Virus record (IMG/VR): IMGVR_UViG_3300006329_000001
Coordinates: 64,001 to 128,000 of that record
Length of the DNA stretch: 64,000 nt
From: a virus
Strand: one strand, 5' to 3'
Below the pieces are notes generated by a model. The model saw only the letters and a list, made by a program, of their open reading frames with translations, was not told the origin of the DNA and made no database searches. Positions 7,406 to 54,910 of this stretch are shown here, one piece after another; the first letter of the stretch is position 1, and each line of letters starts with the position of its first letter. A program made the position numbers and the translations under genes.

Positions 7406-7413
7406 TATTTATG
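7406..7413 (-). promoter_or_regulatory. T4-type late promoter (CATAAATA) overlapping the upstream stop codon
   Basis: NATAAATA about 23 nt upstream of the 7383 start. Confidence 0.65.
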
Positions 7414-9004
7414 TGGCATCGAACGAGATACCAGTAGTATCCAACGATACGTTGGTACTTGAGAAGTCCTCAGCAGTTTGACCGCCACCAACACCTGTCA
7501 CAGTGAGAGTTGCAACGTCAGTTGTTAGAGGAGAGTTAGTTGCAGGGGTTGCACCCACAGGTCCTGTGATAACACATCTGTATTTGTATCCAGACATGTA
7601 TGACAGAGCAGTGAATGTAAGACTATTAGCAGTAGATCCTGTGATAACAGCAAATGAATATCCACCATCTGTAGATCTGAACCATTGATAAGTCTTAGGA
7701 CCATCCTCAGGACTAATAGATGCAGTAACAGTAAATGTAACTGATGAAGCAACTTCCACTGTAGCACTCTGAGGTTGTGCACCAAGCAATATAGTAGCTG
7801 GTGGTGCCTCACCGCCACCTGCAGGAGGTGCAGGAGGTGTAGCAGCACCATCATTATCTGGTTTCTGCAATACTTCTCTAGTAGTTAATCCAATAAGATA
7901 TGGAAACTGAGGAACTAAATTCTGTTCAGAATCTAATTGAGTAGATAAGAAATATGCATAAGTTCCATTAGGAAATTCAGGTGTTACTGCAAATCTACCA
8001 TTATGGTAATCAAGTGTTCCTAATCCTTCTTGGTATTCCCAATCTTGTATAAGTGATCCTGCAGGTGGATTCTGCTGAGTAGTACCATAAGTAGGTCTTC
8101 CATCTGCTTCCTCTGATTTAACTCTATATGAACTACTTGCTACTGCAATATCAGAACTATTATTCCATGGACTACTATAGATGTAAGGACCATAAACAGG
8201 GAATCCATCAAAAGCAATTCCAACCATTTTAGAATGTCCATCAGGATGTCTTAGATTGTCACCGTTATACTGACTGGAACCATAATAATCATTATATCCT
8301 GCCATTACAGAATTTGCCTTCCAACAAGAAAGGAAATCTGTATCATGATAATGATATTGACCTGTATTTTCAGGATGTCCACCACATGTATCATCACCAA
8401 AATCTACAACAGCATCTTCGAAATGTGCGTTCCAGTTAAATCCAGTAGGAGGGTTACCACCTGCACCTGCACTAGGATTAAAGAAGACGACACCGTTAGA
8501 TGCAACACCAATAGCACCTAAAGGTACTGCAGCTCTTGCATTTCTTTGATCAAAATATTGATAAGTTCCACTATATGTCTCTCTAGTATAATCAACAATC
8601 AACTCAAGATTGGTTGATGTTGCTCTCCAAAATTCTCCAGAAGCAACTGTCTGTTGAGTACCAGTATACTTAAATACTTGCTTCTTTTCATTAGCAGTTC
8701 CTTCATCCAATATGAAAAGGATTCTATCTCCAACTTGTATCGAACTTCCTAATAAAGCATTATCTGCAACAGATATAGGGATACTAATTACAAATCCATT
8801 TTGTGAAAAATTAGCATCATCAAAAGTTCTACTAATACCAAACGTACCACCCCTATAATACCAAGAATGCTCAAAGTCTTGCTCTGTTACATTGTTGGGA
8901 TTATTTACATTAGGAAAGGTACCAAAAGTAACGGGGTTGGGGAGTCCATCCCCGTCCACCGTTATTACTTTGGTTCCTTGATTATATGTTGATGTAGCAG
9001 CCAT
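7409..9004 (-). CDS. YHYH-domain protein with C-terminal Ig-like domain
   Basis: 531 aa with GAIGVASNGVVFFNP, DTCGGHP..GQYHYH, HSKMVGIAFDGFPVYGP and LDYHNGRFAVTPEFPNGTYAYF. The C-terminal AQPQSATV...TYQWFRS...GYKYRCVIT...ATLTV segment looks like an Ig-like fold. Confidence 0.8.
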   Translation of the reverse strand: MAATSTYNQGTKVITVDGDGLPNPVTFGTFPNVNNPNNVTEQDFEHSWYYRGGTFGISRTFDDANFSQNGFVISIPISVADNALLGSSIQVGDRILFILDEGTANEKKQVFKYTGTQQTVASGEFWRATSTNLELIVDYTRETYSGTYQYFDQRNARAAVPLGAIGVASNGVVFFNPSAGAGGNPPTGFNWNAHFEDAVVDFGDDTCGGHPENTGQYHYHDTDFLSCWKANSVMAGYNDYYGSSQYNGDNLRHPDGHSKMVGIAFDGFPVYGPYIYSSPWNNSSDIAVASSSYRVKSEEADGRPTYGTTQQNPPAGSLIQDWEYQEGLGTLDYHNGRFAVTPEFPNGTYAYFLSTQLDSEQNLVPQFPYLIGLTTREVLQKPDNDGAATPPAPPAGGGEAPPATILLGAQPQSATVEVASSVTFTVTASISPEDGPKTYQWFRSTDGGYSFAVITGSTANSLTFTALSYMSGYKYRCVITGPVGATPATNSPLTTDVATLTVTGVGGGQTAEDFSSTNVSLDTTGISFDAT

Positions 9005-12000: not shown

Positions 12001-15000
12001 TTTGTAGTATCTTTGTAGATATCATATCCAGACCACTGAGAAGTATTATTCTGATCATACAATGTACGTTTTACATACTCACGAATTCTAGTTGTGTAGA
12101 ATAGTAAGTGCTGTCTAACAACAGTTGGGAATGCGATAAAGTTACCTTCACCATCAAACCAAGTGTTAACCAACTTAAGCATACCTTGGTTACCACCTGT
12201 ATTCATGTCATACAATAATGCATGAATCATATCATCAGCAAATTGCTTGTCTGCACCAGTACCAGGATATTGGTTAACAGTTCTATCGTATGCCTTGTTA
12301 ACAATTGCGTGCTTATTAAAGAGAAGATGTCTTGCACACTTCTTATCAGACTTAGATCCACCACCAAGTGTATTGAGTAATACATCGAATAATGTATCAG
12401 TTGCAGACGTTACATTATAACAAGTAAATGTCTGATAGTTTTGGTTAAATCTGAATGGTGGAATCTTCTCGATAGCATCCAAGTGACTTCCACCACCACC
12501 TTTAGCAAGATAGATTGTGTCAATGATGATTTGCATCAAAGATTCTATATTTGCTGCAGCAGTTGGACATGTTGTATTCCAATCTCCTGCATCAGCACCA
12601 TCAGTATGGAATGTGATTGATACATCACGTTCTGCCATTTCAGGAGCGTACTTAACTGGCCAAATCATTGGTAGAGATTTAGTAATCGTACCATCAGTTA
12701 GAGCTGCAGGTGTGTTAATTGCAGTAGTATAGATTGCCATCGAAGTTGTGATAGCAGATGCAACATCAGCACACTTAGGATTATTAGTGTCAGCAGTAAT
12801 TACATAGTTACTTGCACTATATGGTTTAAAGTCAAGATCATTGTAGAATGATTGCTTATACTTGTGTCCACTTCTAGGATATGTCTTCTGTGCAGTATTA
12901 CCATCTCTTGAGCATGTGAATGTCAAGGAGTTAGGTGCTAACTTAACAGATGTTCCAGTGAATAGATCATGTGAACCAATTGTTAATGCTAAGTATCCAG
13001 TTGCAGGATCGTAAGTAGCATTAGTTGGTGTGTAAGTGACGATTGGTGATTGACCAACATCAACAGTAATTGTGTTACCTGACTTAGCAACGATAGGCAT
13101 TGGTCTATCGAAAGCAGGATCCTTAGCACGAGGATATGTATGATTAGTTGTGTAATCATCTTGTGCACAAGTGAATGTTAATGAATCAGTTCTGATCTTA
13201 ACGTTTGCACCTGCTCTAACAACACCACCAGAAGTTGCAGATACAAATGAATGAGTTGTAGTGTTAGTAGAAGGAATATTTTCTAGAACTTGTACATCAA
13301 ATGTATTTGTTCCTACGTTAGAAATAGTCAACCAGTTTCCACTTGCAGGGTCACTTGATCTTGGATAAGAATGATTACCTGAACCTTGTGTACATGTGAA
13401 GGTTAATGAATTATCAGCAATGTTAACTTTGTCTCCATTGTTCCATCCATGACCATTAATAGTTAAGGTCATTACACCTGTATTTGGATCATATGCAGCA
13501 CCAGTAACTGTCTTCGCTGCACTTGGTCCTTCTAGTGTGTTTGATCCAATATCTAATACTAAGTGTCCAGTACCTGCATCATATGTTGCGTTAGAAACAT
13601 TAAAGTCTACAAACGGTGTTGAGGTTACGTTAACAGTTATTGAGGTTGATGTGTATGCAGTTATGGATAATGTTTGACCAGATGCATAATCAGTAGATCT
13701 TGGATATCCATGAACTGTGGAGTTACCATCAAAATCACAAGTGAAGTTTAATCCATTATCATCAATCGTGATTGTGTTGGAATTAGTTAAGTTGTGAGCA
13801 GAAGCAAAGGTAAGAATTAATTCACCAGTAGTACCATCATATGTTGCTCCATTAGGTGTCAACTCAGTAGGTGCACCACCAACATTGACACAGTTAGTTG
13901 CAGCACTTACAAATGTATGATCGTATGCACCACCAGTCATTACTGCACCAGGTAGAGCACTTACAAATTGATGCTGATAATTACCACCAGTGATTAGAGC
14001 ACCAGTTTGAGCACTTACAAATGCGTGAGTGTACTGATCGTTAGGACCAGAAGCACCAACTTGTAATGTAACTACACCTGAAGGATTCTGTCTTGTAATA
14101 CCATTGGTTGTAGCTGATACAAACTGATGAGTGTAATCACCACCAGTGTGGATAGCACCTGCAGTTGCAGATTTAAAGGTATGCTGATAATTACCACCAC
14201 TAATTACAGCACCAGAAACTGCATACTGGAAGTAATGAGTTGTGAGGTTGGAGATAGCACCAGATCCATCATTTACATCTAATGTAATTGTTCCATCTTG
14301 CTTATGAAGACCATTAGCAGCGAATGATTGGAATTGATGTGTGTACTGATCATTAGGACCAGAGATACCAACTTGTATACTGAAGTTATTGTTATCAACG
14401 AATGTTACTGGTAACCACTCATCATATACTGGGTCAGTTGTTCTTGGATATGAGTGATCGCTAGAATTACCATCTTTATTACATCTAAATGTAACTGCAT
14501 TAGGAGCAATCTTAACCATGTCACCTGCATAAGTTACTCCATTAGGAGAAGCAGTTACAAAATTATGAGTTGTAGTATCAGAAGATATACCAACATTAAC
14601 TTCGAATGTATCGTTAGTTACGTTAGTAACTTGTAGCCACTTATCGAATGGATAATCAGATCCACCAGGAGCAGCAGAACCATACTGTCTAGGATATGAT
14701 TTAACAGCACTGTTACCATCTAATCCACATGTGAATGAAATTGAGTTAGCAGCAATCTTAATTCTATCGTTATTCGCAAAACCATGATTAGTGATAGTAA
14801 CAACCATCTTACCATCAGCAGGTGTGTAGGTTGCACTTTCGATAGTATGTGTTGTATGACCCGCTAAACCATGGTTGTTCATGGTTAGTGTCATTACACC
14901 AGTAGATGAGTTGTATGCAGCACTTGTTGGTGTATGTGTTGTATGTCCAACAGCATCAATATTAATTGCTGTATTCCATGCAGGGTCAGGACCATTAGGT

Positions 15001-18000
15001 GCTGAAGCACGAGGATAAACGTGATTTGTTGCTTGACTATCTTCGTCACACTTAAAGACTAAAGAACTTGTTGCTATCTTAATGCTCTCTCCAGTTCTAA
15101 ATTCATGAGCACCAATTGATAGAACGATGTTACCAGTATTAGGTGTAAAGACTGCATTGTGTACATCATAATTCTTAATAACAGATGCACCAACATTAAC
15201 TGTGATTGTAGTCTCAGTAGTACCGATAATCTGAACTGGTTCACCACTAACAGGATCAGTTGTTCTTGGGTAAGTTTTAGTTGAGTTATTTCCATCCATC
15301 ACACAAGTAAAGGATAGAGAATTATCAGCAATCTTAATATTAGTTCCTTGACTTAATGTATGGTTACCGATAGTTAAGATTAAGTTACCAGTATTAGGTT
15401 CGTAAACTACGTTAGTAGGAGTAAACTTCTTAATCTTAGAAGTACCAACATTAACTGTAAATGTATCATTAGTCTTAGAAATAATAGGTAACCATTGTCC
15501 ACTTACAGGATCAGTTGATCTTGGATATGTGTGGTTACTGTAGAAATTATCCATTGAGCAAGTTAATGTCAATGAATTATCAGCAACGTTAATCTTGTCT
15601 CCTACACCAAATCCATGTCCTGAAACTGTTAGAGTTAATAGACCTGTACCTGCATCATAAGCAGCATTAGTTGCAGTATGAGTTGTAGATGCAACATCAA
15701 CAATATCAATAGCAGTATCGAATGAAGGATCAGCACCATAGTTAAGTGCTAGAGATTCATTTCTCATTACCTGAATCGCTAGATCTCTTGCATAGTTACA
15801 TATCCAGATTGCTTCAGTAGCATGAGTTAGACCTTCATTAACATAGTATTCAGCAGCACGAACAATCTTGTTGTTACCACCATGACGTAGGTTCCAAACC
15901 ATAGCGTCAAGGAAGTCACTTAAGTCATGTACACAGTTGATATTTCCACCAGGAATATTAAGTGAAGGATATTGTACTTTAGCAGCAGCAATAGTTTCTT
16001 CAGCAATAACACGGATATTTCTTTCGATTACATCAGCAGCGTTAATGAATCTATCTTTAACAGCATTACGTTCGTAAGTAGAAACGTCAACGTTGTCAAA
16101 GGACTCACTACCGCCACCAGTTATACCATCGTCATCTCCTGTATCTGCATCTGGGTTATAGATGTAAAGGTTCTCACGACCAAATCCATTACGGATAGTC
16201 ATAATTGCAATTTCAGTTGCAATCTTAAGAACACTAATACCTGCTTCATCTTCACCAGGAGCAACTCCAACATTACATGTAATTTGACCAGTCTGTCTCT
16301 TAAGTCCATCTGTGGTAAATGATACAAATGAATGAGCAGAAGTATTAGTAGAAGGAACAGTTGTTAATACCTGAACACTGAAAGTATTAGCATCAACATA
16401 AGTTACAGGTAACCATGCTTTGTATGCAGGATCTTGAGGTCTTGGATATTGCTTAGTCTGTGAATTACACTGTAATGAAAGAGCATTTTCAGTTATCATT
16501 ACATAATCATTTGCCTTCGTAATACCATTAGAAGTTGCAGACTTAAATGTATGTGCAGTTACGTTAGTAGAAGGAATCTCTGCTAGAACCTGAACATCAA
16601 AAGTATTATTAGTTACGTTAAGAATAGGTAACCATGAATTTGAGGCAGGGTCAGTAGAACGAGGATATGTATGATCAGATACGTTGTTGTCTAACATACA
16701 TGTAAATGTTAATGAGTTATCAGCAATCTTTACACTATCACCAACACTAAATCCATGGTTAGTGCAGGTCAATGTCATGATACCTGTCTCTGGATTATAA
16801 GTAGCAGTTTCTACAGTATCCTGTGACTGACCAGTAAACGGATGACCATTTAATGTAAATGCTACAACACCTGTATTAGGATCATAAGTAGCACCTGTTG
16901 GTGTATGAGATGTTTGTGATACCTCAGTAATTTCTACAGATGTATTATAAACAGGATCTGTATCACGAGGATATGAATGCTCAGTTATATAATCATCTCT
17001 ATCACATGTAAATGTTAATGCTTCTTTCTTAAATCTGAAACTCTGTCCAGTAACTAATTGGTGTGCACCAATAGTCATTTGTAATGCACCTGATACAGGG
17101 TTGTAATCAGCAGCAGATACGTTGTAGTAAACTAAAGGAGTTGTACCAACATTAACTGTAATTGTTGATAATGTATATGCAGTAATAGCAAGAGACTTAC
17201 CATATGCAGGATCACCTTTACGAGGATAAGTATGATTGTCCTCATTCTGGTTCATTTCACAAGTGAAGGTTAAACCATCTTCTGCAATCTCAATAGTATT
17301 AGAAGAAGTTAATCCGTGACTTGGAATTGTTAAAATTAAGTTACCAGTAGAAGGTTGATAAACTACGTTTTGTGGAGTATGTTGTCCACCACCATTATCA
17401 GTAACAGCATTAGTTGCAGCAGTTACAAATGTATGTCCATAGTTACCACCTGCTTCGATAGCATTTAGAGATGCTCTAACGAATTGGTGTGTATGCTGAC
17501 GACCATTTAACTGAATAAGATTATCAGTCTCAGGATCAAGATATAATGCAGCAGCTTCATATGTCTTACTGTTACCACCCTTTCTAAGGTCATGTGCAAC
17601 AGCCTTTAATATATCAAGAACATCATCTACACAATTCTGAGCACCATCAGGAACAGTGAAGTTAAGGAACTTAGAAAGATCGTTCATTGTATGAACTGCT
17701 TCCCAAGCAATTACATTAGCGTTCTTCTCAATCAAGTGAGCAGCATCTAATACTCTGTTATTAGAATCATAAGCATCAGGATTATAACCCTCTGGGTCAA
17801 TAGTGATTGTTGGATCTCTATAAACTGCAAGGTCTGTGTACTGCATTGGATAGTAGTCATCCTGATATACAGTTGGAATATCTTCTCCAAGACCTGCAGC
17901 AGTTTGACCTTGAGGTAAGAGAGTGTTGTTGATACACTTCTTACATAACATTCTTACATATTCATATACATCCAATACAGCACTTAGTTCATTGTCAACC

Positions 18001-21000
18001 GAATAAAGTTCGTTATTAGCGTTGAGGAACTTACTGGTGTTGTACTGGATAGCATTAGTTCCACCTGTAACCAAGTCAGCAATAATAGCAGGAAGAATAT
18101 AAGTCTTGATTTCGAAAGTGCACTTATTAGGATTAGCGTTAGGGTTTTGATAGAAGTCATAAGTTGTACTATTAATATTTGCTTGGTAGGTTGCTTCTAA
18201 CCAACCAACTGCTTCAGCAGCGATTGCATCACGGTTCTGCCAAATTAGATCACCTGCATCTCTGAATCTCTGACCTGTAGGTCCAAGAACATCTCCAATA
18301 TCATCACATAATTTAACAATAGCATCCTGAATCTCTTGTGAAGCAGGAGATGAGAAGTTGTTAGGTATACGAAGTATATCAGTATACTGAGTACCACCAT
18401 AAGTCTTAAGATCTGAACTTGTAGTTGTAATTACATAATTACAAATTGGTGCTAATTCTCTATAGGTGTAAATTGACTGAAGAATCTCATTAGCGATATG
18501 CTCTAATCCTTCGTATGCAGTTAAGTAGTTTCTAGCAGCAAGTGTACTGTTATAGTTACCACCATAACGTAAATCTTGGATAACACCTTTAAGAATAAAC
18601 TCTTTAGTATCTCTTAAACAGAAACTTGTACCCTGTTGAGGACCAACTCCATCAGCAGTATCACCAGGCATCACCAAATCAGGGAATTTTGCCTTCATCT
18701 TCCAGACTGCAGTTTCAGCAATCCATGCTCTGTTAAGTTCTAAAATATCTGCTGCTTGACGGAAAGCATCTCTTGATATATCAACTTCCTCAACAATAAC
18801 TTCACGAGTATCATAATCAACTTTAGTTGCTTGAGAAGCAGAATTAGTAGTACCAGTTAGAGTTGCATATGCTTCATTATTACTCATAATGATAGGCAAC
18901 TCATTACTCATTGAGAAGGTAATACCAGTTGTAGATGTTGGGAATAGAGTAGAAGGTGTAAAGGATGAAGTATACTTAGACTCTCCACCATAGAATACAA
19001 CGTTATCAATATATCCAACATAGTTGTTACCACCGTTCCACTCAGCACCAATAGTCATCTTACGTTCACGGTAAGTATTAGTGTCTGTGTAATCAGTACC
19101 AACTTGTGAACCATTAACCCAAAGTTTGAGTATTTGACTGGTTCTAGTCATGGCAATGTGATACCATGTATTAGCACTCATACCATGAGCACCACTAATC
19201 ACATCAGAACCATTAATCTTATACTTCAGGTTACCTGAATCAAAGTAAAGACTTGGAGAATTAACTTCTGAAGCACCACTTGTACGCATATCAAGTAGGT
19301 ACTTAGTAGTGTTCATTGCAGTTGTAGGACGTACCCACATCTCAATGGTAAAGTCTGATGTGCCAAATGCAGGTATAGTGGATAATGCATATGAGAGGTA
19401 TGCTCCTGAATCAAGTTTCAGGGACTTCGTTCCACTACGTTTTTCTATAGCTGTTAGTCTTGCTGAAGCAGGATATATGGTAGTAGCATTAGTAACTGCA
19501 CTCTGGAATGTATGTGCATAACTACCACCAACTTCTACAGCATCTGCGATTGCTCTTACAAATGTATGTGGAGTAGTATTAGAAGAAGGAGCAGAACTTA
19601 ATACGTTAATAGTAATAGTTCCATCTTGTCTAGTAATGTTGTTAGAACCAGAAGTTACATATGTGTGAACATATTGCTCATCTGCAGGAGATTCACCAAC
19701 CTGAACACCAATATTATTATCATCGATTACAGTAACATCTAACCACTGATTATCGACTGGATCAGTGCTTCTTGGATATGTGTGATTACTACCATTACCA
19801 TCTTTAGTGCAACTGAATGTTAATGAATCGGTAGCAATCTTGATTCTGTTACCAGTCTGCATTCCATGGTTAACAATACTAAGTTTAAGAGTACCGTTAG
19901 AAGGTTCATAAACTGCATCAGATGAAGTAAATGTTGCTTGTACACCAATAGAGGTTACATTAATCTTAGTATTGTATACAGGGTCTTGTCCACCTGAAGG
20001 GTTACCTGAACCTGCAACTCTAGGATAAGAGTGCTCTGTAGCATCACTATCTTGAGTACAAGTAAAGATCAATGAATTTGGTTTTAATCTAATACTGTCA
20101 CCAACATTAAGATTATGGTTACCAACATTAAGAACAGTAGAACCTGTGATTGGATCATAATCTGCACCAGTTACTTGTAAGTATGTCTTAGGAGTAGCAC
20201 CAACATTAACTGTAAATGTATTAGTTGTAGTTTTTAAAATCTGAAGTTGTTGTCCTTGTCCAACTGGATCATCAGCACGAGGATAGTCATGGTTGGATGC
20301 ATTACCATCCATTGCACAACTAAATCTCAATGCATTAACAGCAAACGATACTTTATTACCTACAGAATAACCATGGTTATTAAGAGTAAGAGTTAACTGT
20401 CCAGTATCAGGATCATATGTTGCTCCTGTAGGAGTTATATTAACGTTAGATCCACCAGGATTATTAGTAATCTTAGTATTGGTGACATACTCTTTAAGTT
20501 TAAAGATACCAGTAACAGTTTGAGCATACAACCATCTTAAACCAGAGTTTGCACCCTTAAGTGGGAATGATGCACCAGTAGTTGCTCCTATAATTGTGTC
20601 ACCAGGAACGAAGAATCCAGTACCACCTCTATCCTTATAAGCAAACTTGTAAACACGAATGTTCTCATTCTCTTGATAAGTACCATCTGAGATAACTGAG
20701 AGTGCATTGATATTATCAAGGTTACCACCTGCCTTAACGGAATTAGCAATAGCAGATACAAATGTATGTGTGTAGTTACCACCAGAAATTACAGCACCTG
20801 CAGTTGCAGATACAAATGTATGAGCATCAGTATTAGAGATAGCACCCTGTCCACCGTTCACATTAACTGTGATTGTGGTTCCTGTTTTAGAAATGATAGG
20901 AAGTGCAGTGTCATACGCATAGTCAGCACCACTAGATGTGTTAGCACCATTAGCACGAGGATATAATCCTTCACCACCACCGTTGTAAGCACACTGGAAT

Positions 21001-24000
21001 CTTAATGATTCAGTGGCAAGTTTAATACTTGTACCAACTTCTAAAGTGTGTGCACCAATAGTTAATTGCAAATCACCAGAAGTTATATTGTAATTTGCAG
21101 CAGTAACATCATGGTTAACGAGAGGAGTTGTACCAACGTTAATTGTAATTGTTGTATTTCCACCACCAACAGCAGTAATAGGGATCTGCTTTTCATACCA
21201 TGGGTCAGTAGGACGTGGGTATGTCTTTTGAGCAGTATTACCATCCATACCACAAGTAAATGTTAATCCATAAGGATCAATTCTTACAGTGTCAGATGTT
21301 GTTAAAGTATGTGATCCAATGGTAAGAACCATGTCACCAGTTGTGGCATTATAAGTTGCACCTGAAGGAGTGAACTGATCACCACTAAATGCAGTAGTAG
21401 CAAGATTTGCTAAAGTATCAATAGAAGATGCTACGTTTGCACAGTTTGTTTCATTCTGGTTAGATCCTGAAGCATAATCTGGATCATAGTAATGTGCAAC
21501 ACTAGAACTCTCTAGATATGGAGCAGAGTATGTTGTAGGATCATTAAGGTTATAACCAGTTTCACTAAGAGACTGACTGTAGAGCAAGTTTCTCATTGCT
21601 CTCTTACATAATTCTTTTGCTTTATTAAATGCAGTTATCGCTTCTTCTGTTTCTGGAAGACCATTGTTAATTGGAATTCCATTTGAGTCAAAGAACTTCT
21701 TAGTAAAGGTTACAATTGCATAATTACCATCACTTTCTAGGTCATCTGCAATAGCATCAATAAAGTATCCTGTATCTCTATTACACTTGATCTCTTTAGG
21801 AGTATAACCTGCATCAGGTGTAGTAAGATCAATAAGATCACTTAGTGACGCTGCTTCGAGGACTTCCTTAACATTGGTCCAAAGAGTTGTAAGAGCAGCC
21901 TGAACGTCAGCACAATTGTCAGCACCGTTGTTAGTAGTATTGGTACCTGCTGATCCATAATTACCGCCAGGATTAGGGTCAGCAGTAATACCAGTATTGT
22001 TATTAGGTCCACTAGATTGCTCATTGTATTTTGTATAAACGACAGCATCAATAGTTTCAGATCCACTTAAAGTGTTCTGAATAGCATCCTGCATATAATC
22101 TACACATCTCTGGAATCCCCAAACAGTTTCAGTTTCTTCACCAAGAAGATATGCTAATGATGTGCCATCAGGGAAGTACTTTTGTAAGAACTTACGAGTA
22201 TAAACTGTACCACCCCATCCTGTATCTCTTGAGAGAGCATCGATGAGATATCTCATATCTCTCTTACATTTAGTAGCACTAGGAATTGTAGAACTAGGAT
22301 ACTGAACAATCATGTCCTGATATGCCTTAGCAATAATCCATTCGCTATTTTTTTGTATTAAACGATATCCATCTTTAAATCTACCATACTGAGTAGTTTC
22401 TGTTTCTCCAGTGTAGTAGAAATCTGGATAGTCGATTGCAATCTGAGAGGTTGCAAAATCGATAATTTCTTGTCTATTATTTCTAATGCTTCTAGCAGCA
22501 TCTTTATATCTGTTAATAGCGTCAGTTTCAGCATTACCGTAACTAACATTGATAGAACGAATCTTATCATTATTAGTGATTGTACCACCAGATAAGTTGT
22601 TATATTCGATCTCAGTAGAACGTACTGACTCATAATCAAGGAAGTCAGCGTTAATACGATCTGCAGCGTCAGTTAATGTAGTAGGAGTAATAGTTGTCTC
22701 AGAGATATTATCAAGAATAATATTCTGGTTAGATAGAGATATAAGTCTCTCAAATACTAATCCGAAGAATGTAGAACCTTTGTTAATGATAAGAGTATCT
22801 ACAACGTCACCTAACTTGATATCACCTGAAACAGTAGCATTTAACGATCCAGCAGTAATTGTTTCACCATCAACAAAATTAGCAACAGATTTAGCTACAA
22901 AGTACAATACAGGTGGTTGTGCTTCAGCATCTACTCTAACAACTTCAGCAAGAGCACCTGAAATTCCACCAGTTAGTTGATCTCCTTCTTCGAAGGCTAC
23001 TGCAGTTGCAAGGTTGATAGAACTGATAGGATCTCTATATGGAGAAATTCCAACTACTTTAGCAGCAATATTTGATGCTGAAGAGTATATAAAGTCATTT
23101 AAGAAAATAGCATAAGCACCAGTCTCATATTCGGCAGTACCAGAAGTCTTAGAAAGAACTAAGAAGGAATCAGTATTACCATCAAGGTCTAAGTTAGTTT
23201 CTTCGACTTTAGCGGTTTCTCCACTTAAAGCAACCTTAGTAACGATTTCTTCGAACTCAAAGATAGTTTCTTGACTTAAAACATCAATGGAACCAATTAA
23301 AGCACTAAATCCAGTTCTAGAAACGTCAATTCTTTCATTGAGTTGATAAGGACCAGATGTGATGTCAATAACATCAATACTTGCTGCACCAGTAGCAACA
23401 ACTCTAGAATTGGCATTAGAAGTGAATCCAGAAACAAAATCACCGATTTGTGGGAAAATACCACCAATAGTGTTTAGATTAAGTCTAGTAATCTGTAATA
23501 TCTGTATTTCTACGTTTCTGTAAACAACCTTAGAATCTGGTCTTGGTGGTTCAGCAAATACGATCTGATTACCAACAATTTGATATGCAGTACCAGGTGA
23601 CTGGATAACACCGTTTAAGGTGACCAACATCTGATTTTCTTTAATTATTACCTGTTCACCTTCTACACTAAGTGGGAATCCTTTAGTAGAACCATCAAAC
23701 TGATCTGAGATGTTATCTAACTTCTTAACGATAGATGTTAAGATTTCCTCAGAGTTTGTTAGTCTTTTCTTTCTGAATAGAACTTCAGAGTTGTTAAATG
23801 TAGAATATATTGGTTGAGCAGCACCAAATGATGTAATTTGGTTAACATTGGTATATTCGTTAATATTAACCTGTTTTGTAAACTCAGTACCAATCTTACG
23901 TCCAGAAACGTCCTTACCACCAGTCAGTTCTAACTGACCGAACATATTAAATCCTGCAGGGTGATTATTCTCTAATACCTGCTTCTTCCAACGGTTAATT

Positions 24001-30000: not shown

Positions 30001-33000
30001 ACAACTGAGTTAAAACTAGGACCAATGATGTATGGGAAGACTGGTAAACCTGCATCTGACTCATCAATGGTTATAAAGTATGCATATGTACCTGCAGGAT
30101 AGTCTGGAGTCTTACAGAAACGTCCATTATAAGCATCTAGGTCACCTTGTTGGAATGTGTACTTATAATCGTTTACAAAGTATCCTGCAGGGTATGTGTC
30201 TAGTGAAGGACCATCAATACGAGCAGGATTTGGGTTTGTATCCTCATCTTCTACAATTTCTGTCTTTAAAGTGTAAGAAGAACGCATTCTTCTAATACCA
30301 CTGTTCTGATCAGTAGGATCAATGTATCCATAAGGACCATAGATGGGATTACCATCAAATGCCCATCCAATGATAGGAGAGTGACTAATGTTAGAAGGAA
30401 CTTCTTGGAAACGGTTAGTTTCTGGATTTAAGAAGACGTTATCACCAATTACATAACGTAATTCCTTAGGATCGGAAACGTGAGCATATTCACCACCATA
30501 TTGGTTATTAAAACCAGTAAAGACGTATCCTCTTGCTATATCATACTTTCTCTTAAGAGATCCATCAGTATTTTGTGCTGTAGGGTTAGCAGGATCAGGA
30601 TCTAACTGATATTCTATATTTTTGTTCCACTGGAAGACATCTGCAGTAAATGTTGCTAATTGACCAACTGCTTCTAATCTAACAGTTGTCATTCCTTGTG
30701 TATATCCAACACCCTTGTTAGTAATCGATACTGAGATAACTTTACCCTTATCTTCTCCTAAAGTACCAATAACAGCAGTTGCTTGAGCACCAAATCCATC
30801 ACCATTGACATAAACCTTAGGTGCTGATGTATAAGCATCACCAGAGTTAATAATAGCGATAGATACGATTCTACCGTTAATAACGATAGGTTGTGCTAGT
30901 GCTCCTTCACCAGAATTAAGTTTTATAGTTGGTGTAGAAGTATATCCGACACCTGGGTTAGATAATGTAACTGCACTGATTGCACCTCTTACAGAAGCAG
31001 TTGCAAGTGCTCCAGAACCTTTTCCACCAGTAATTGATATAGTTGGTTGTGAGGTATATCCAGTTCCTGGGTTTTCTACAAGAATTCTTGTTACTCTACC
31101 ATTAGTAACAACCGCTTGAGCAGTTGCACCGCTACCACCACCTCCAACGATAGAAATTAGTGGTTGTTCTGTATATCCACTACCTTCTGCAGTAACTTCG
31201 ACTGAATCTAGTGATCCATTAACAGTTACAGTCGCTGCAGCACCTGTACCGCCACCACCAGTGATTTCTAAGGTAGGTCTTGATCCTGCATCATAATCTA
31301 CACCTTCATTAGTGATATTAACAGTAGTTAAAGGACCAAAGGTAACAAATTCACTAGATTTGTAAGACCAAGCAGAAACACCGTTAACCCAAGCACCAAT
31401 TGGATAGTTTGCACCAACTTCTGTTCTTGTAGAGATAGTTTCGACAATTCTAGGGAAACGAAGTAGTTTTCTTTGGTTTCCTGGAATCATTGCAGACCCT
31501 TGGAAAGGACCTACCTTATAGTTGGGCAATCCAGACGCTGCAACGTAAACGTAGTTAGTATTAAAGAATGCGTTCTGTATATTAGAGGTAAATAACGAAA
31601 TTACTTCATCAATAGTGGTTTCAGTTGACTTTCCTCTATTAAGGTCAACAGAAAGAAGTATATTACCCTGTGGAACAATGTCCATTGGGGTAGGAATGCT
31701 GTATGAGAAGGTAAAGTCGTCTAAACGAGAAGTAACCTCAAAAGTACCATTATAAACAGCAGGGTTTGCACCATAAATGGTAACTTGATCTTCTACAAGC
31801 AAACCATGTGGGTTAGAGCAGACAACAGTAGCAGTTTGGTTGTTAAGACCACCAGGATTGATGGAAGTAACGCTAATTAGCTTCTTAACGTTGTATAGCC
31901 ATGATTGGAGTCTCTCATCTTCACCAGATGAACCTAGAGCAGCAACATTTAACTTATCTCCAGGCAAATAGTAAGATCCACTGTCTTCTAATTCAGTAGT
32001 ACCCGCTTCAGCAATACCAAGTACTCTTAACTTGACTTCAGTTGACAATCCACGGTTAACATAGACAAAAATATCAGAATGAATGATTGTACCAGGATCC
32101 CAATCCTCTACAACACCATTTTGAGACCTAGTACACTCAATAAACTGGTTTAGTGACTTTTCTTTGTACTGAACAGTCTCTTCATCATCAATAATGATAG
32201 TACCGTTCTTTTCTGGCCATCCAATTGTACTATCAACCGTAATTATGTTACCTGTGGTTGTTAGTGGTTCTACAAGGTTGGTTTTATAAGGAATCTTAAA
32301 CTCACCAGTGAGTGTTTCTTCAGATATTGCTAATTCATAGATTACGTCAGTTCCCTCAATAATAGAAATGACGTTTTCGATCAAAACGTTAGCATCTTTG
32401 ATGTTTTGGTCAACAGGATCTGCATATTGGACTAATTGAGCATTTCCTAAATCTGCAGGATCACCAGAAATCAATTTTGCACGCAAAATGGTGTCAACAA
32501 CCCAAGAAGCATCGGAAGGTTTGATTAATTCATCTCTAGGATAGAATATATCAACTTCTTCACCAAATAGAATCTTAAAGAGGTATTGAGCAGCAGTTTT
32601 CGTACCTTTAGAAAGGTAGAAGTCCTTAATTGTCTTAATTACCTGAATCGGATTGACTTGAGTGTAGTCAATATTGATTGTAGGCATATATTGACGACGG
32701 AACTTGTCAAATACCTGTGTAATAATCTGTGCATCAAGGTTATGTACAACTGCACCAGTTGCATGGTCACTTTGCCTTAGTTGTTCCTCCTTAGCAAAGA
32801 TCTGATTACCAAATTTATCAAAATCAACAATTTCAGATACACCTCTAGCACATCCTTGTAATGAAGATGGTTGATATTCCTTACCAGTAGATAAAATACT
32901 AAATCCAGTTACTTCTCCAAATCCAACGTCGCAAGATGCCTGTGCTGCCAAGGGTTCTGCGATGTAAACTGTGGGAGGTTCAGTTGTAGAGTAACCTGTA

Positions 33001-34746: not shown

Positions 34747-36843
34747 TTAGAAACAGGATTCGACTTCTGGATACTCGAAAGCATCGATTGGGTAACTGAT
34801 GATATTTATTGGGGTTCCACCGTAGTTCCATCCACCAAAGTTATTAGGATCAAATGTTGGAACAGTTGTTGGGTTAGTAATGAAATCAATTGGGTAAACT
34901 TCAGGGTTAAAGATTGTAGGATCAACTCCTGGTGGAATTGTAATCGAATCTGAGTCTGGGTATACAACAACAGGAATTCTTGGAGTGCCATCAGATGTAT
35001 CAGCAACATCTAAAGGTCCTACACAAACTATACCGTTTTGATAATCAACGGTTCCTATGCTGTTATTAAGAATTACTTCTTTTTCGTTACGAGTGGCAAC
35101 TAATAGAAGATTTCCTTTTCCATCATCACGAATATTAACTGGTACTAACACTTCAGTTGTTCTAGTACCTGAGGCATATACAGCTTCTGATGCATCTGAC
35201 GAAGCAGTACCACCACCTGCAGTAGATCCGTCCGCTAAGAGGTCTGCAAGGTTCTCTGTGTACCCTGTAGCGTAGAACTTACCAGATTTAACTGCACTAT
35301 ACTTAGGAGGGCATGTGGAGTCTCCTGCATCGTTTCCACCTAAGTCACTTGGGTTCGTAATTGGGTTACCAAAGTCTAAACATTGGGTAAATACGTTTCC
35401 AAATGTAAATTGGTCTAAATTTTGACCCATAGTAAGTTGAGTACTGGTTCCAGAAATAGCATCGTCTGAAGCATCAACCATTGAGTTAAATTTAGATTTC
35501 TCTAATCTATTGTTAAACCTATTTTCACGATTCTGACCGTTATACTGGTCAATAGACTTGAGAATTTCAGTACCTAGTTCATTTGACGATCTAGAAGTTT
35601 CGTTACCGTTATAGAAAGGATAAACTTTAGGTGTAATATAGAATATTCTTGGGTCAACGATTACTGGTTCGATAGATGCCATCGAATACTTCAGTAATTG
35701 GTTCTTAATACGAACCTTTGTGGTAGTATTAAGGTTAACACCTGATTTTGACCTAACAGCAATATAAACCTTACCGTAAATAGGAGGATTTAACTTCTCA
35801 CCACCATATGCGGTAACTGCTGCTGCTTGAGGATACAGAGTAGAAACGATATAAGCATAATCGTCTTCTGTAACTGCCCTAGACTGCGTTGAGAACTGCC
35901 TAGGAGCACGGAATTTGACTGCCAACGCTGATTCCCTGTCAGTACCATCTTGACTGCTGTCTATGGTCGCTAGAGACATGCTAGAAGGAGGTATAGCACG
36001 ACCTTGGGAGTCTACTGCTTGTCCAATAAAGGAGAACTTAGTACATCCGTTTGCTTCGGTTCCTGCAGTACTTACATACTCTAATATAATGAACTCATTA
36101 TCAATCAATTTACGTCCTAGAACCCCATCACCGAAGATTACCTTGTATCTAAGGTCTTCAGTCTCCTCTAGGAAGTAGTTTCTTGATGTAGATGTTAAAT
36201 CTACCACGTTTGTAGACAATGAATACTCATCAAGCTCTACAGACTGTTCTGAAGGTTTAACAGAAACAGTCAAAAGTTCAGTATCGACTGATTCAGCAGG
36301 TATTACAAACTCTTGCTTTTTAGTGTCATCAACTGTGTATGTAAATCTAAGTAAATTACCCTGATGAATAATAACCTTAGTAAAACTTGCTATACCATTG
36401 TTTTGGTCAACTGATACAGTTACATCATCTAGTAAACAATAAGTGTAGGTGTCATTTGTGTTACTAGAAATGTAGACATCACCCTTTCTGATAGTTACTG
36501 TGTCTGGGTATGATTGTCCACCTGGAATCAGTGCAGTCTGAATTGCCATTCTGACGCACGCTTTTGATGCTTTAATGGAACGAGGGGTATAACCAAGCTG
36601 CTTTGCTATTCTTACAATATTATCCCTTACCGTTGCTGACTCAAGAAACGCTTCATTCATGCTCATGTTAGCATTAAATGAAGTGTAGTATGTGTTGTAG
36701 GCAAGTATGTCTATTAAGTATGAAGCAGCCGATCCCTCAAAGTCATAATCGGTAAACTCATCACGAGTACGCAAATACGACTTAATGGACTCTTTTATCT
36801 CAAAGAAATCCAGAGAGGTTAATTCTGATGGGGTAGCTGGCAT
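34747..36843 (-). CDS. gp6: Baseplate wedge subunit gp6
   Basis: 698 aa with LDFFEIKESIKSYLR...FTDYDFEGS...LIDILAYNTYY...NEAFLESA.VRDNIV.IAK.LGYTPRS and QSRAVTEDDY, the classic T4 gp6 motifs. Follows gp25. Confidence 0.93.
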   Translation of the reverse strand: MPATPSELTSLDFFEIKESIKSYLRTRDEFTDYDFEGSAASYLIDILAYNTYYTSFNANMSMNEAFLESATVRDNIVRIAKQLGYTPRSIKASKACVRMAIQTALIPGGQSYPDTVTIRKGDVYISSNTNDTYTYCLLDDVTVSVDQNNGIASFTKVIIHQGNLLRFTYTVDDTKKQEFVIPAESVDTELLTVSVKPSEQSVELDEYSLSTNVVDLTSTSRNYFLEETEDLRYKVIFGDGVLGRKLIDNEFIILEYVSTAGTEANGCTKFSFIGQAVDSQGRAIPPSSMSLATIDSSQDGTDRESALAVKFRAPRQFSTQSRAVTEDDYAYIVSTLYPQAAAVTAYGGEKLNPPIYGKVYIAVRSKSGVNLNTTTKVRIKNQLLKYSMASIEPVIVDPRIFYITPKVYPFYNGNETSRSSNELGTEILKSIDQYNGQNRENRFNNRLEKSKFNSMVDASDDAISGTSTQLTMGQNLDQFTFGNVFTQCLDFGNPITNPSDLGGNDAGDSTCPPKYSAVKSGKFYATGYTENLADLLADGSTAGGGTASSDASEAVYASGTRTTEVLVPVNIRDDGKGNLLLVATRNEKEVILNNSIGTVDYQNGIVCVGPLDVADTSDGTPRIPVVVYPDSDSITIPPGVDPTIFNPEVYPIDFITNPTTVPTFDPNNFGGWNYGGTPINIISYPIDAFEYPEVESCF
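34803..34810 (-). promoter_or_regulatory. Possible late promoter (AATAAATA) for the giant gene, inside the gp6 3' end
   Basis: NATAAATA about 60 nt upstream of the 34742 start. Confidence 0.4.
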
Positions 36844-43574: not shown

Positions 43575-44206
43575 GCAGGTGTTACGTTAAATGTCAATGT
43601 GATTCTATTATCTGTCTGGTTACTTTCATATCCATGAGTCAGATTACTAGGATAGATTACCACATCACCTTTCTTAAACGGTACTGTTGCTTCCTGTAGA
43701 TTAAAAGCAGTCATCTGTTTAAACGGTAACATCATTACAGGGAACATCTGAGACTGTACCTGACGTTTAAACTTGAGAAAACTATGTGCTTCCTGATCAT
43801 AGTTAATAAAGAACGTACCACTAAACACACAGTTAGCATGTTCATGGGGAGCATAGATAGCACCTTGATGTGCAACCTCTACATATACATCATTAATACG
43901 AAACTCAGAAGCATAGTTTAAACCTTCATTATTATGAAAGTGTACACATTCCATTAACTGCTTCTCTAGATCAGGCATATCCTTAAGGATCTGATTCGTT
44001 TTACCTACCTGTTGTACGTTATGACATAGAACTGCTCTCTCGTTTATCTCAACGAAATCCTGATTCTTCATCCATTTCAGTACAGGATCTACAAACTCTT
44101 CTATATTAAACTTACTCACAGGAGTCATAAAAAGACCATACGTCTCTCTATCCAAGCGAGTATGTTCACTAAAGTCCTGCTTGATGTCGTGTATGCTAGT
44201 GCTCAT
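43571..44206 (-). CDS. Fe(II)/2OG oxygenase, TIGR02466-like
   Basis: PHEHANCVFSGTFFI, GDVVIYPSNLTHG and RITLTFN motifs. Confidence 0.8.
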   Translation of the reverse strand: MSTSIHDIKQDFSEHTRLDRETYGLFMTPVSKFNIEEFVDPVLKWMKNQDFVEINERAVLCHNVQQVGKTNQILKDMPDLEKQLMECVHFHNNEGLNYASEFRINDVYVEVAHQGAIYAPHEHANCVFSGTFFINYDQEAHSFLKFKRQVQSQMFPVMMLPFKQMTAFNLQEATVPFKKGDVVIYPSNLTHGYESNQTDNRITLTFNVTPA

Positions 44207-44342
44207 TGTGTTTCTTGGTAGTACGCTTTATTAATTTAGCATACTTAACTTCTTCTTTAGTATACCACCCTTTATGCTCTTTAGCAAGTTTGATGATTTT
44301 CTTTGCGGACTTTCTGTCCGACTTCCTCTGTGTCTCATCCAT
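44196..44342 (-). CDS. Hypothetical basic 48-aa protein (MDETQRKSDRKSAKKIIKLAKEHKGWYTKEEVKYAK...)
   Basis: Hand-translated; overlaps the next gene's start. Confidence 0.55.
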   Translation of the reverse strand: MDETQRKSDRKSAKKIIKLAKEHKGWYTKEEVKYAKLIKRTTKKHNEH

Positions 44343-44504
44343 ATGAGAAATTTTTATATACGAAAAATATTTTTAATATAACATAATATAACGACCCCTC
44401 TGGGATACGTTTATAGCTTAGAAAGACGGTACTTTTTTAATTATAGACAACGAACGGACGAAATTAACTGTCATAAGTGTTAATAACTGTGTGCGTGCTA
44501 TGTA

Positions 44505-44711
44505 TTACATAGTGTCCTCAATATATCCCACATCATAACATAAACCCTCTGCTATGAAGTAGTCACATAACTGTTGTAATTGTCCATGCAATTCTTCATT
44601 TAAACCTGTGTCAATTAGACCCTGTGCTAACAAGATCTGTTCATCAGGTGGACAACATCCAGACTCATAAAGTTCCAGGAGAAACTGTAAAGAATAGGGA
44701 ATAGATTTCAT
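44505..44711 (-). CDS. Hypothetical protein
   Basis: 68-aa ORF with an ATGA overlap to the upstream ORF. Confidence 0.6.
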   Translation of the reverse strand: MKSIPYSLQFLLELYESGCCPPDEQILLAQGLIDTGLNEELHGQLQQLCDYFIAEGLCYDVGYIEDTM

Positions 44712-44890
44712 GCTAATTGTTTACTATAACTCTCAGCATCTTTGAGTGCTAATTGATAAGATTTAAACGCTCCGTTAGGTTTACAATTTGGGTAATCATA
44801 TGCCCAAAAATGTTTACTACCCTTTGTCCACAATTTAATAGTAACTGGGGGGTTAGTTTCCAAAGTAATTGTTTTAGTCATTAGAGGCAA
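44708..44890 (-). CDS. Hypothetical protein
   Basis: ORF track; true start probably the ATG at about 44881. Confidence 0.55.
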   Translation of the reverse strand: MPLMTKTITLETNPPVTIKLWTKGSKHFWAYDYPNCKPNGAFKSYQLALKDAESYSKQLA

Positions 44891-44942
44891 TTAAGGCAAA
44901 AAAGTGTTAAGCAATTAAGGCAATATAGGCATCTAATTCTTG

Positions 44943-45110
44943 TTACTTAGTGGGCATATTAGGCAGGTCATTGTTAATAGTTTTCCACAAGTCTGTGGAT
45001 AACTTGTTAGAAACTCCCTTATGATTAGGTCGGGATTGTTTCCTCTTTTCTCTCAAACTTTTCGCCTTATGTGATACATAGAGGTCGTTTCGTTTGTATG
45101 TCCTACCCAT
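44943..45110 (-). CDS. Small basic hypothetical protein (MGRTYKRNDLYVSHKAKSLREKRK...)
   Basis: Hand-translated 55-aa ORF directly downstream of a consensus sigma70 promoter. Confidence 0.55.
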   Translation of the reverse strand: MGRTYKRNDLYVSHKAKSLREKRKQSRPNHKGVSNKLSTDLWKTINNDLPNMPTK

Positions 45111-45152
45111 TGGTAATTAGTGTTATTAATTAACACTTAAGTAACTGCTAGT

Positions 45153-45181
45153 ATTATATAGCAAAAATGCCTATGTGTCAA
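45153..45181 (-). promoter_or_regulatory. Consensus sigma70 promoter TTGACA-N17-TATAAT
   Basis: The minus strand reads TTGACA cataggcatttttgcta TATAAT, about 43 nt upstream of the ATG at 45110. Confidence 0.85.
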
Positions 45182-45350
45182 ATTGTGTTGACGTGCTGAT
45201 AGTGTTGACAATTCGGTGATGATATGAGACAATTTGAGACACCAACAACTCCGTACATTCCGAAAGGTATAAAACACTTAACTATGTTTTTTAAAACATT
45301 TATAAAGTTTTCCACAATTTCCCGTAACTGTGGATAACTCTATACGCCCA

Positions 45351-45566
45351 CTAGGTTATTTCTACCCAATTCTCTCTGGGGAACTCTGGTAACTCTGGGT
45401 CATTTGCTGACTTTAGTTCAGTTGCTGTGATGCCCTCTAGTGCATCAAAATGGGGATAAAACAGTTCATCTAGAATTTTCTCTGACATGACTTCCTGTTC
45501 ATCATCCATAAAAACCCGATAATGCTTAAAGGCATTGTAGATTAGTTCATACTCTTTTCTGTTCAT
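45351..45566 (-). CDS. Hypothetical early protein
   Basis: 71-aa ORF with an AGGA RBS-like sequence. Confidence 0.6.
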   Translation of the reverse strand: MNRKEYELIYNAFKHYRVFMDDEQEVMSEKILDELFYPHFDALEGITATELKSANDPELPEFPRENWVEIT

Positions 45567-45600
45567 TGGTTTCTGTCCTATAGTGTGAATAAATGGGGGA

Positions 45601-45939
45601 TTATCTCAAATAGAGATAACCACCTGCCCAACTAGCACGATTTAGACATAAATTCCTGGAATTCTCGTCTAGTAGGTTATAGCGTACATGTTTAGCGGGT
45701 GCTTTCCATGAAGCAGGTTTGTAAACGTCACCTGTTTTTTTATCAACAAATGCGTGTACTGATCTACTGGAATACTCGCCATTTCTCTTTTCGCATTGGT
45801 TGATTTTAAAATACTTTCTACCTGATTCGATTCTAAACTGTAAATCTTGCCCCTGTGGGTACTGGTGGTTATAGTCCTCTGTGAGTGCTGTGCATAACTG
45901 TTGAGCGTAGTTTAGAACTGGGTTTGTTGCTGTTGTCAT
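45601..45939 (-). CDS. Conserved phage hypothetical protein
   Basis: GRKYFKI...SVHAFVDKKTGDVYKPASWKAPAKHVRYNL motif, recognised as widespread in large myoviruses. Confidence 0.7.
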   Translation of the reverse strand: MTTATNPVLNYAQQLCTALTEDYNHQYPQGQDLQFRIESGRKYFKINQCEKRNGEYSSRSVHAFVDKKTGDVYKPASWKAPAKHVRYNLLDENSRNLCLNRASWAGGYLYLR

Positions 45940-45985
45940 GATGTTTAATAAAAAAAAATTTGCGTGCTGTGAGTGATTGTGAGAT

Positions 45986-46219
45986 TTACTGATTGATTGC
46001 TCTTGTGTTGATTACGAGGTCTCTGACTCTTTCCCTGTCTAGTGAGTCTCCGTTGCCCCAAGTGACGTGAGTTCCCTCTTCGCATAAATCCAGATAATTT
46101 AGTGTTGCTAGTGCTAACTCTTGTCTGGTTAACCCTTGGATAGGGTAGAGGGCATCAGGATGACTAGGTAAATAGAACATTTCGCAATAGTCAAGAAAGT
46201 CTTTAAAATTAGTTGGCAT
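45986..46219 (-). CDS. Hypothetical early protein
   Basis: 77 aa with a GDSLDRERVRD motif. Confidence 0.6.
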   Translation of the reverse strand: MPTNFKDFLDYCEMFYLPSHPDALYPIQGLTRQELALATLNYLDLCEEGTHVTWGNGDSLDRERVRDLVINTRAINQ

Positions 46220-46370: not shown

Positions 46371-46379
46371 TTTTTGATG

Positions 46380-46450
46380 CTCCGTAGGTGTCTATAATAG
46401 TATTATAAAGGATTTTCTGAATAAAGTATATACAGAATGTGCGGAAATTA
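46380..46450 (-). promoter_or_regulatory. Early promoter/leader cassette copy A
   Basis: 20-bp TATTATAGACACCTACGGAG (46380-46399) preceded by a TATAAT -10 box. Confidence 0.7.
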
Positions 46451-46834: not shown

Positions 46835-46842
46835 TTTTCGTA

Positions 46843-54909: not shown

Positions 54910-54910
54910 G

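Follow-up and report, generated by a model that had tools for sequence, protein, structure and literature searches.

Phycobiliprotein-like domains with a conserved bilin-attachment motif in a giant putative baseplate protein of a cyanomyovirus

Can a virus particle carry domains derived from the light-harvesting phycobiliproteins (PBPs), and might such domains hold a pigment and respond to light? The question is raised by a giant open reading frame (ORF) in IMG/VR virus record IMGVR_UViG_3300006329_000001. The window, i.e. the whole stretch of DNA that was analyzed, comprises 64,000 nucleotides (nt), positions 64,001–128,000 of this record. The record is 162.7 kb in length, is an estimated 87% complete and shows 95% nt identity to Cyanophage P-RSM6, a phage of Prochlorococcus NATL2A. 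The original prediction, made from the sequence of the window, saw six to seven helical repeats in the 8576 amino acid (aa) ORF product, and suggested that these may be PBP domains that are displayed on the baseplate, accept phage-made bilins and, for example, sense light. Coordinates below are those of the window unless another record is named. The ORF is:

9012–34742, minus strand: giant ORF, 8576 aa (ORF list and translation), assigned to the gp7 position of the baseplate module; holds all of the PBP-like domains

A hidden Markov model (HMM) built from the repeats finds seven full helical domains of about 115 aa and one half copy. All are inside the giant ORF, and the same model finds no further copy in the rest of the window or the rest of the record. 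The predicted number of repeats is thus borne out, and every peptide cited for them is present in the translation at the position first assigned to it. The copies are:

22407–22517, minus strand, aa 4076–4112: half copy A1, helices A and B only, lacking the Cys segment; HMM positions 5–41, 12.1 bits; profile positions 33–68 of the PBP family PF00502
22053–22391, minus strand, aa 4118–4230: copy A2, canonical K-C-K-R-D, Cys4159 (22266–22268)
21567–21932, minus strand, aa 4271–4392: copy B, canonical K-C-N-R-D, Cys4320 (21783–21785); its first helix is the N-C-A-D-V Cys helix described below
18273–18782, minus strand, aa 5321–5490: copy C with the downstream helix H (copy C alone, aa 5321–5446), canonical C-L-R-D, Cys5375 (18618–18620)
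17907–18281, minus strand, aa 5488–5612: copy D, degenerate C-T-F-E, Cys5541 (18120–18122)
17490–17771, minus strand, aa 5658–5751: copy E, C-V-D-D, Cys5704 (17631–17633), truncated after helix F; PF00502 12.2 bits
15738–16067, minus strand, aa 6226–6335: copy F, C-V-H-D, Cys6270 (15933–15935); PF00502 14.5 bits
12018–12356, minus strand, aa 7463–7575: copy G, no Cys at the attachment position

The full C-x-R-D motif is found in copies A2, B and C, and copies D, E and F have the Cys with D or E at the Asp position and no Arg, exactly as tallied in the original prediction; copy G had not been scored there. The orthologue in S-SZBM1, which is 57% identical, has the motifs CKRD (A2), CRRD (B), CARD (D), CTSD (E) and CVHD (F), and copy G again lacks the Cys. 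The Cys is thus present in the same six copies of both proteins. Copy D reads CTFE where its S-SZBM1 counterpart reads CARD; therefore the Arg and Asp were lost in the lineage of the giant ORF while the Cys was retained. The giant ORF is a rather decayed member of its domain family.

Sequence comparisons relate the copies to PBPs. The C-terminal half of the giant ORF matches PF00502 with 43.3 bits (E-value = 4.7e-11, cut-off 22.2), and this is the sole helical family matched in Pfam. Single copies score 12–23 bits, always at about profile positions 33–85. The segment containing A1 and A2 scores 23.1 bits, which is above the 22.2 cut-off, and copy C, which has the longest B-E loop of all copies, scores 18.3 bits at profile positions 33–83 and displays phmmer matches to allophycocyanin alpha. 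A profile of the seven copies was compared with all PDB sequences. The best match is phycocyanin alpha of Gloeobacter (E-value = 7.5e-8), and the best 60 matches are all PBPs or engineered derivatives of PBPs. In the profile alignments the K-C-x-R-D of the phage domain lies on K83-C84-A85-R86-D87 of CpcA, and the subsequent G-G-N lies on the Gly-Gly turn near residue 102. The motif Cys is in register with the bilin-binding Cys84, as had been proposed, and the C, R and D of the motif with C84, R86 and D87.

The giant-ORF copies were also aligned by hhalign with 15 real PBPs (probability 96.2%, E-value = 2.6e-9). An alignment of 600 domains from the wider family gives a nearly identical result (96.1%, E-value = 2.9e-9) over 103 columns, which correspond to CpcA residues 35–145. 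The 15 PBPs are from Synechococcus RCC307, Sphaerospermopsis and Synechocystis salina, genomes that were found through the psbA gene of P-SSM2, and they represent 22 distinct ORFs from cyanobacterial PF00502 loci minus seven wrong-frame reads. A genome scan with the phage PcyA as query gave no match, word-indexed homologue searches returned short metagenome fragments only and no PBPs, and a related-locus search with a single protein gave close relatives only. By sequence, CpcA ranks highest at 26–30 bits, followed by allophycocyanin-type subunits; CpcB and CpeB rank lowest at 7–14 bits.

Amphipathic helical repeats might resemble PBPs by chance or convergence, and the scores of single copies against PF00502, only 12–23 bits, are of the kind such a likeness could give. 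However, all copies match one family in one register, and the profile and profile-profile statistics are strong. Structure prediction bears on the same point. An AlphaFold model of copy C alone has a pLDDT of 77, and a sequence-independent structure search with it places allophycocyanin first (Z 10.5), together with ApcE and photocobilin. The model of copy C with its downstream helix, from a 53-row alignment, has a pLDDT of 83, a pTM of 0.81 and six main helices, and displays the globin-like helices A, B, E, F, G and H that characterize the PBP family. Its closest structural match is phycoerythrin beta (Z 16.8, rmsd 2.5 Å over 152 of 171 residues, chain residues 26–184). Allophycocyanins (Z 14.8 and 14.4), phycoerythrin alpha (14.0) and ApcE (14.0, rmsd 2.2 Å) follow. 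The top eight matches are PBP-type, and below them are photocobilin (Z 12.4) and globin-coupled sensors (Z 11.8 or less). Foldseek gives a TM score of 0.71 with E-values of 3.5e-3 or worse, none of which passes 1e-3, and the fold is assigned on the basis of VIA-align Z scores together with the TM score of about 0.7. The weak Foldseek E-values could be cited for a chance likeness; nevertheless the sequence-independent search ranks PBPs first with Z values of 14–17. The resemblance is far beyond chance, and chance or convergent likeness is effectively refuted. Homology to PBPs and the fold are regarded as secure, with very little doubt remaining, and the seven domains of the giant protein are, as judged from their sequences, descendants of PBPs.

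The domain is not a complete PBP subunit. The N-terminal X-Y hairpin is missing: structural and profile alignments begin at PBP residues 26–38, and the domain spacing of about 109 aa in relatives leaves no room for it. Because of these two features the unit is, in the predicted model, the PBP core without the X-Y hairpin, i.e. a fold of the superfamily and not a phycobilisome subunit.

The domain family is much larger than the copies in the giant ORF. When 1.84 billion representative proteins were scanned in full with an HMM, the domain was detected in 1252 of them at E ≤1e-3. Many of these are 2–7 kaa (thousand aa) long with 15–34 matched stretches, and the domain makes up more than half of the chain length. 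Relatives that can be placed are in T4-like structural modules, where they adjoin gp13, gp15, portal or gp23 genes. Three relatives from marine metagenomes, 4.2–4.4 kaa in length with 20–22 tandem domains, illustrate this:

Contig L006, 5567–18721: relative with tandem domains
Contig L010, 6646–19197: relative with tandem domains
Contig L011, 10001–22765: relative with tandem domains

Two of the three consist of a repeat of about 109 aa without a linker. All adjoin gp13/gp15 or portal/gp23 genes, followed by further giant ORFs.

Conservation was counted over 980 domain instances from 150 representative proteins of the family. The most conserved positions are an Asn (94%), the Cys (95%), the Arg (91%), the Asp (99%), a second Asp (97%), the G-G-N turn and a Tyr (97%), and C-x-R-D is the most conserved motif family-wide. 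The consensus K-C-x-R-D-[VI]-G-Y is nearly identical to K-C-A-R-D-I-G-Y of CpcA. The strongest constraint across the family is thus on the residues that hold the bilin in PBPs, i.e. Lys83, Cys84, Arg86, Asp87, Gly89 and Tyr90. Because of this constraint, which is the main argument, we infer that the canonical copies may carry a bilin. A heme-binding globin was considered as another identity for the domain and is ruled out, as the family profile has no conserved His.

The main rival explanation accepts descent from PBPs and dispenses with the pigment. The domain would have been co-opted as a rigid spacer of baseplate and fiber proteins, and CxRD and the other invariant residues would owe their conservation to folding, contacts between domains, disulfides that form after lysis or a different ligand. 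The bead-like tandem arrays, in which 15–34 copies occupy more than half of proteins of 3–6 kaa, have an architectural look that agrees with this. However, a spacer leaves unexplained why the three residues of the most conserved motif are the bilin ligands of the parent family. There is in addition one Cys per domain, and therefore no intradomain disulfide is possible. A pigment-free spacer is a real possibility, held at clearly less than an even chance.

The distribution of the domain among phages also bears on this choice. Searches of 50,697 phage records by tblastn gave 323 matching records with copies C–E as query and 356 with an eight-copy relative. All are named Synechococcus, Prochlorococcus or Cyanophage, with the exception of one that is named only "Marine". 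At the tblastn sensitivity used, cyanophages are the only sequenced phages that have the domain, and the outcome that the original prediction had said would overturn it, repeats just as frequent in phages whose hosts are not photosynthetic, is not seen. Confinement to phages of bilin-producing hosts is likewise left unexplained by a spacer. The domain genes are labelled "virion structural protein", "short tail fibre" or "hypothetical" in the databases. A literature search of about 8.4 million full texts, with most subscription journals outside its coverage, found no description of PBP-like domains in phage virion proteins.

The domain was also detected in metagenome-assembled genome (MAG) contigs assigned to "Candidatus Nanopelagicaceae" (P0078 and P0177; contig of GCA_049456175.1, L012). 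An origin in phages of non-photosynthetic hosts was considered for these and rejected, as they encode a multi-copy domain protein that shows 65% identity to the short tail fiber of S-RSM4. From their sequence they are probably cyanophage DNA that was mis-binned into an actinobacterial MAG.

Where in the virion would the domains be located? By gene order and similarity the giant ORF is at the gp7 position in the T4-like baseplate module of a P-RSM6-like cyanomyovirus. This placement is made because a gp6-like gene lies upstream, genes for YHYH, gp9/10-like and gp8-like proteins follow downstream, and the N-terminal part has a weak Pfam Baseplate_wedge match (aa 696–739). Gene order gp6-gp7-gp8 and wedge similarity, which mark a gp7-like wedge protein, are thus both present. 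The giant ORF is 95% nt-identical to the P-RSM6 "virion structural protein"; for the similarity to wedge proteins, PF23786 scores 28.9 bits (cut-off 27). Other features of the region are:

34747–36843: gp6-like gene, upstream neighbor of the giant ORF
30063–30503, minus strand, aa 1414–1560: YHYH domain (PF14240) within the giant protein
7409–9004, minus strand: next gene downstream, with a second YHYH domain
aa 5120–5252 of the giant ORF: concanavalin-like Laminin_G_3 domain, directly before copy C
12873–21260, minus strand, aa 4495–7290: sixteen beta-type modules of about 85 aa, F-[TS]-C..D..H-x-Y-P-R, and six GGNY.H.F repeats (regular-expression count on the translation)
21852–21920, minus strand: Cys-capped short helix, Cys4277, N-C-A-D-V..A.L.T-L (motif search)
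21387–21449, minus strand: Cys-capped helix, Cys4434 (motif search)
12708–12779, minus strand: Cys-capped helix, Cys7324 (motif search)
12507–12575, minus strand: Cys-capped helix, Cys7392 (motif search)

The beta-type modules and the GGNY.H.F repeats are interleaved with the PBP-like domains and have no Pfam match. Each beta-type module has one conserved Cys and usually one His. A single conserved Cys is thus found in these modules as well as in the PBP-like domains, which is a point in favor of the spacer. The Cys-capped helix (N-C-A-[DN]-V..S.I.T-L) is present after some copies; it occurs in 13–21% of inter-domain linkers and in 45 of the 150 family proteins. Its pattern alone is suggestive of the Cys153/155-helix H region of beta subunits. 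Elsewhere in the window, positions 44000–56000 have a G+C content of 0.34–0.36, compared to about 0.38–0.40 in the remainder, and few ORFs longer than 150 aa.

The explanation that we favor as a whole, and consider to have an even chance of being correct, is that these are PBP-derived, bilin-carrying domains of a baseplate protein. Each would be a globin-like bilin-binding core (helices A–H) without the hairpin for alpha-beta pairing, and the units would probably be monomeric beads along a baseplate or fiber extension. The canonical copies A2, B and C would carry a bilin in thioether linkage to the Cys84 equivalent. The bilin may come from host or phage PcyA/PebS-like enzymes, and its attachment may be autocatalytic or performed by a lyase of the host or the phage. 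In copies D to G, which are decayed, bilin binding is probably weak or absent. The most likely use would be a light-responsive baseplate or fiber, where photoisomerization of the bilin shifts the conformation of the domain or fiber and gates adsorption.

Does the phage have the means to make and attach a bilin? Encoded in the record are a PcyA equivalog (224.6 bits), a PebS/PebA-like reductase next to it and a protein of the CpeT family (43 bits). Heme oxygenase and psbA were not found in the record, which at 87% completeness is not evidence of their absence from the phage. In S-PM2 and S-RSM4 a "short tail fibre" gene rich in the domain has cpeT 1–1.4 kb upstream of it. Presence of the domain and of CpeT was compared across 20 cyanophage genomes, the source record included:

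Domain and CpeT (n = 12): P-HM1, P-HM2, S-PM2, P-SSM4, P-RSM4, Syn33, P-TIM40, Syn9, S-RSM4, S-CREM1, S-SSM5 and the source record
Domain without detectable CpeT (n = 2): P-SSM7 and S-SKS1
CpeT without domain (n = 0)
Neither domain nor CpeT (n = 6): P-SSM2, P-SSP7, S-SSM7, S-SM2, S-CRM01 and S-TIM5

CpeT is thus present in 12 of the 14 domain-positive genomes (Fisher's exact p = 7e-4 for the association). A bilin reductase is found in all seven domain-positive phages of the Prochlorococcus type (six isolated on Prochlorococcus and the P-RSM6-like source record) and in none of the seven isolated on Synechococcus. This fits bilin supply in a bilin-poor host and is also a known host-linked pattern. 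P-SSM2 and S-SSM7 have a ferredoxin-dependent bilin reductase gene and no domain.

Some features of the cpeT loci are recorded here in their own right. The cpeT gene adjoins a 2OG-Fe(II) oxygenase gene both in the source record (144189–147407 of the record; locus G000:C1, L007) and in S-PM2 (NC_006820, 163952–165888), and in S-PM2 the two genes are just upstream of the domain-rich short tail fiber gene. The S-PM2 RefSeq entry NC_006820.1 shows 16 tRNA features at 168556–173383, inside the 11-kb short tail fiber coding sequence, apparently an artefact of the coordinates or the annotation.

Adsorption of several of these phages has been compared in light and dark. P-HM1 and P-HM2 fail to adsorb in the dark, whereas P-SSP7 and, at a lower level than in light, P-SSM2 are able to do so; light sensitivity of host receptors and/or of tail fibers was suggested as the cause (PMC6628666, Liu et al. 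2019). The phenotypes of P-HM2 and P-SSP7 agree with those in Demory et al. 2020. S-PM2 adsorption is described as light-dependent and photosynthesis-independent (Jia et al. 2010, as cited in PMC6628666). The family profile gives six matches in the complete genome of P-HM2, six in P-HM1 and ten in S-PM2, and the copies in P-HM2 and S-PM2 include canonical CARD, CIRD, CKRD and CRRD motifs. The same profile finds no domain in the complete genomes of P-SSM2 or P-SSP7, and an unfiltered hmmsearch of the P-SSM2 six-frame translation with three profiles also finds none (best E-value = 0.049). Domain presence is therefore concordant with light-dependent adsorption in all five of the phenotyped phages.

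This concordance can be read in two ways. The virion itself may be the photoreceptor, with bilin photoisomerization acting as a switch, so that the apparatus for adsorption would be inactive in the dark and active in light; we hold this tentatively and think it improbable at present. Alternatively the bilin is bound and does not act as a switch: the chromophore would stabilize the fold or serve as an antioxidant or photoprotectant of the tail apparatus, and light-dependent adsorption would have another cause, e.g. host receptors. Apo-PBPs are generally less stable than the holo forms, the adsorption correlation rests on very few independent contrasts, and P-SSM2, which is without the domain, also adsorbs somewhat better in light. 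However, the PBP fold is able to photoswitch, phycoerythrocyanin alpha (2c7j/k/l) being among the profile matches. The related photocobilin globin domain belongs to a protein of which a "dark state" form has been deposited, and the five phenotyped phages agree without exception. A bound bilin with no switching role is also judged unlikely.

Several results weigh against the proposal that these domains carry bilin and gate adsorption. CxRD is intact in only three of the seven copies of the giant ORF; the other four have no Arg, and one of these also has no Cys. Most copies are 7–11 residues shorter in the B-E loop, which helps to close the PBP pocket, and the fold is known from predicted structure only. 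No report of pigmented cyanophage virions was found in the literature searched. A spacer would agree with the shortened loop, with the persistence of degenerate copies in orthologues and with the lack of reports of pigmented virions.

The genome comparisons have limits of the same kind. In the gp23 tree S-CRM01, P-SSM2, S-SSM7, S-SKS1 and S-SM2 form one clade with 98/98 support (the Syn9 row is a wrongly picked ORF and is disregarded). The five T4-like genomes without cpeT are thus a single gp23 clade, and four of them are also without the domain. The joint absence is essentially one event. Because the genomes lacking both belong to one clade, the cpeT and adsorption links rest on about one evolutionary event plus the podovirus, and they are leads, not independent statistical evidence. 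Strict coupling of the domain to cpeT, considered as a further candidate, is ruled out by P-SSM7 and S-SKS1, which have the domain and no detectable CpeT, and by the single-clade pattern. A bilin reductase is present in half of the domain-positive genomes (7 of 14) and in 2 of the 6 without the domain (p = 0.64). Light-dependent adsorption is also on record for AS-1, a phage outside the genomes compared. The phage lyase is T-type, and the classical target of this type is beta-Cys153/155, not Cys84 (PMC10452541).

The proposal of acceptors for phage-made bilins therefore stands in part. The source phage does encode PcyA, a PebS-like reductase and CpeT; as a general rule it fails, as the reductases are not tied to the domain and the lyase is T-type. 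Co-occurrence with pebS and cpeT had been named as a check: cpeT accompanies the domain in most genomes, subject to the one-clade pattern, and the reductases do not follow it. The computational outcomes named as able to overturn the original prediction turned out the other way: the predicted fold is globin-like, the repeats are those of the PBP family, and the phages that have them are cyanophages.

Taken together, bilin attachment to the canonical copies appears evenly balanced, because the conservation pattern, host range and bilin genes speak for it, and the short B-E loop, a phage lyase of T-type and not of S-type, the decay of several copies and the absence of any report of pigmented virions speak against it. 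Gating of adsorption by light is doubtful.

The light-dependent adsorption of some cyanomyoviruses has been known for decades and becomes directly testable; it would be explained if the virion is a photoreceptor. The same holds for the puzzle of the phage pigment genes, i.e. the bilin lyase homologue and the bilin synthesis genes in phages of bilin-poor Prochlorococcus. In the photoreceptor case cpeT, and pcyA/pebS in Prochlorococcus phages, would act in virion maturation and not in host metabolism. A virion that carries pigment and responds to light would be a viral sensory device of a new kind and would affect how diel infection dynamics are modelled for the phototrophs that dominate the ocean. 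If the domains are instead free of pigment, a host light-harvesting fold has still been recruited into the virus particle and expanded to arrays of up to about 30 copies.

The closest known systems are the PBP alpha and beta subunits of PF00502 (CpcA/B, CpeA/B, ApcA/B/D/F). These share with the phage domain the globin-like helices A–H and a common register of Asn47, Lys83, Cys84, Arg86, Asp87, Gly89 and the Gly-Gly turn at about 102. By sequence the nearest of them is CpcA, and by overall structure phycoerythrin beta. Unlike the subunits, the phage domain has no X-Y hairpin and so would form no alpha-beta monomer or ring assembly. Its B-E loop is 7–11 residues shorter, it occurs in tandem within virion proteins of thousands of residues, and it has invariant residues of its own, an Asp in D-L-x-x-G-G-N and a Tyr ten residues later.

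T4 gp7 has the same gene position after gp6, and the N-terminal part of the giant ORF retains the weak Baseplate_wedge match. However T4 gp7 is about 1000 aa in length and has no PBP-like domains; the giant ORF has about 7800 aa in addition. ApcE is similar to the giant ORF in that a PBP-like domain (Z 14.0, rmsd 2.2 Å) is fused into a very large multidomain protein. It attaches its bilin without a lyase and would be a precedent for lyase-free loading. ApcE differs in having a single PBP-like domain, in being intracellular and in having the attachment Cys at a different position. Photocobilin (PDB 8j2w, 8j2y; Z 12.4) is bacterial, is no virion protein and gave no sequence match, but it likewise has a PBP-type globin-like domain that is outside the phycobilisome and fused to other modules. 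This domain acts as a photoreceptor and binds biliverdin non-covalently together with B12.

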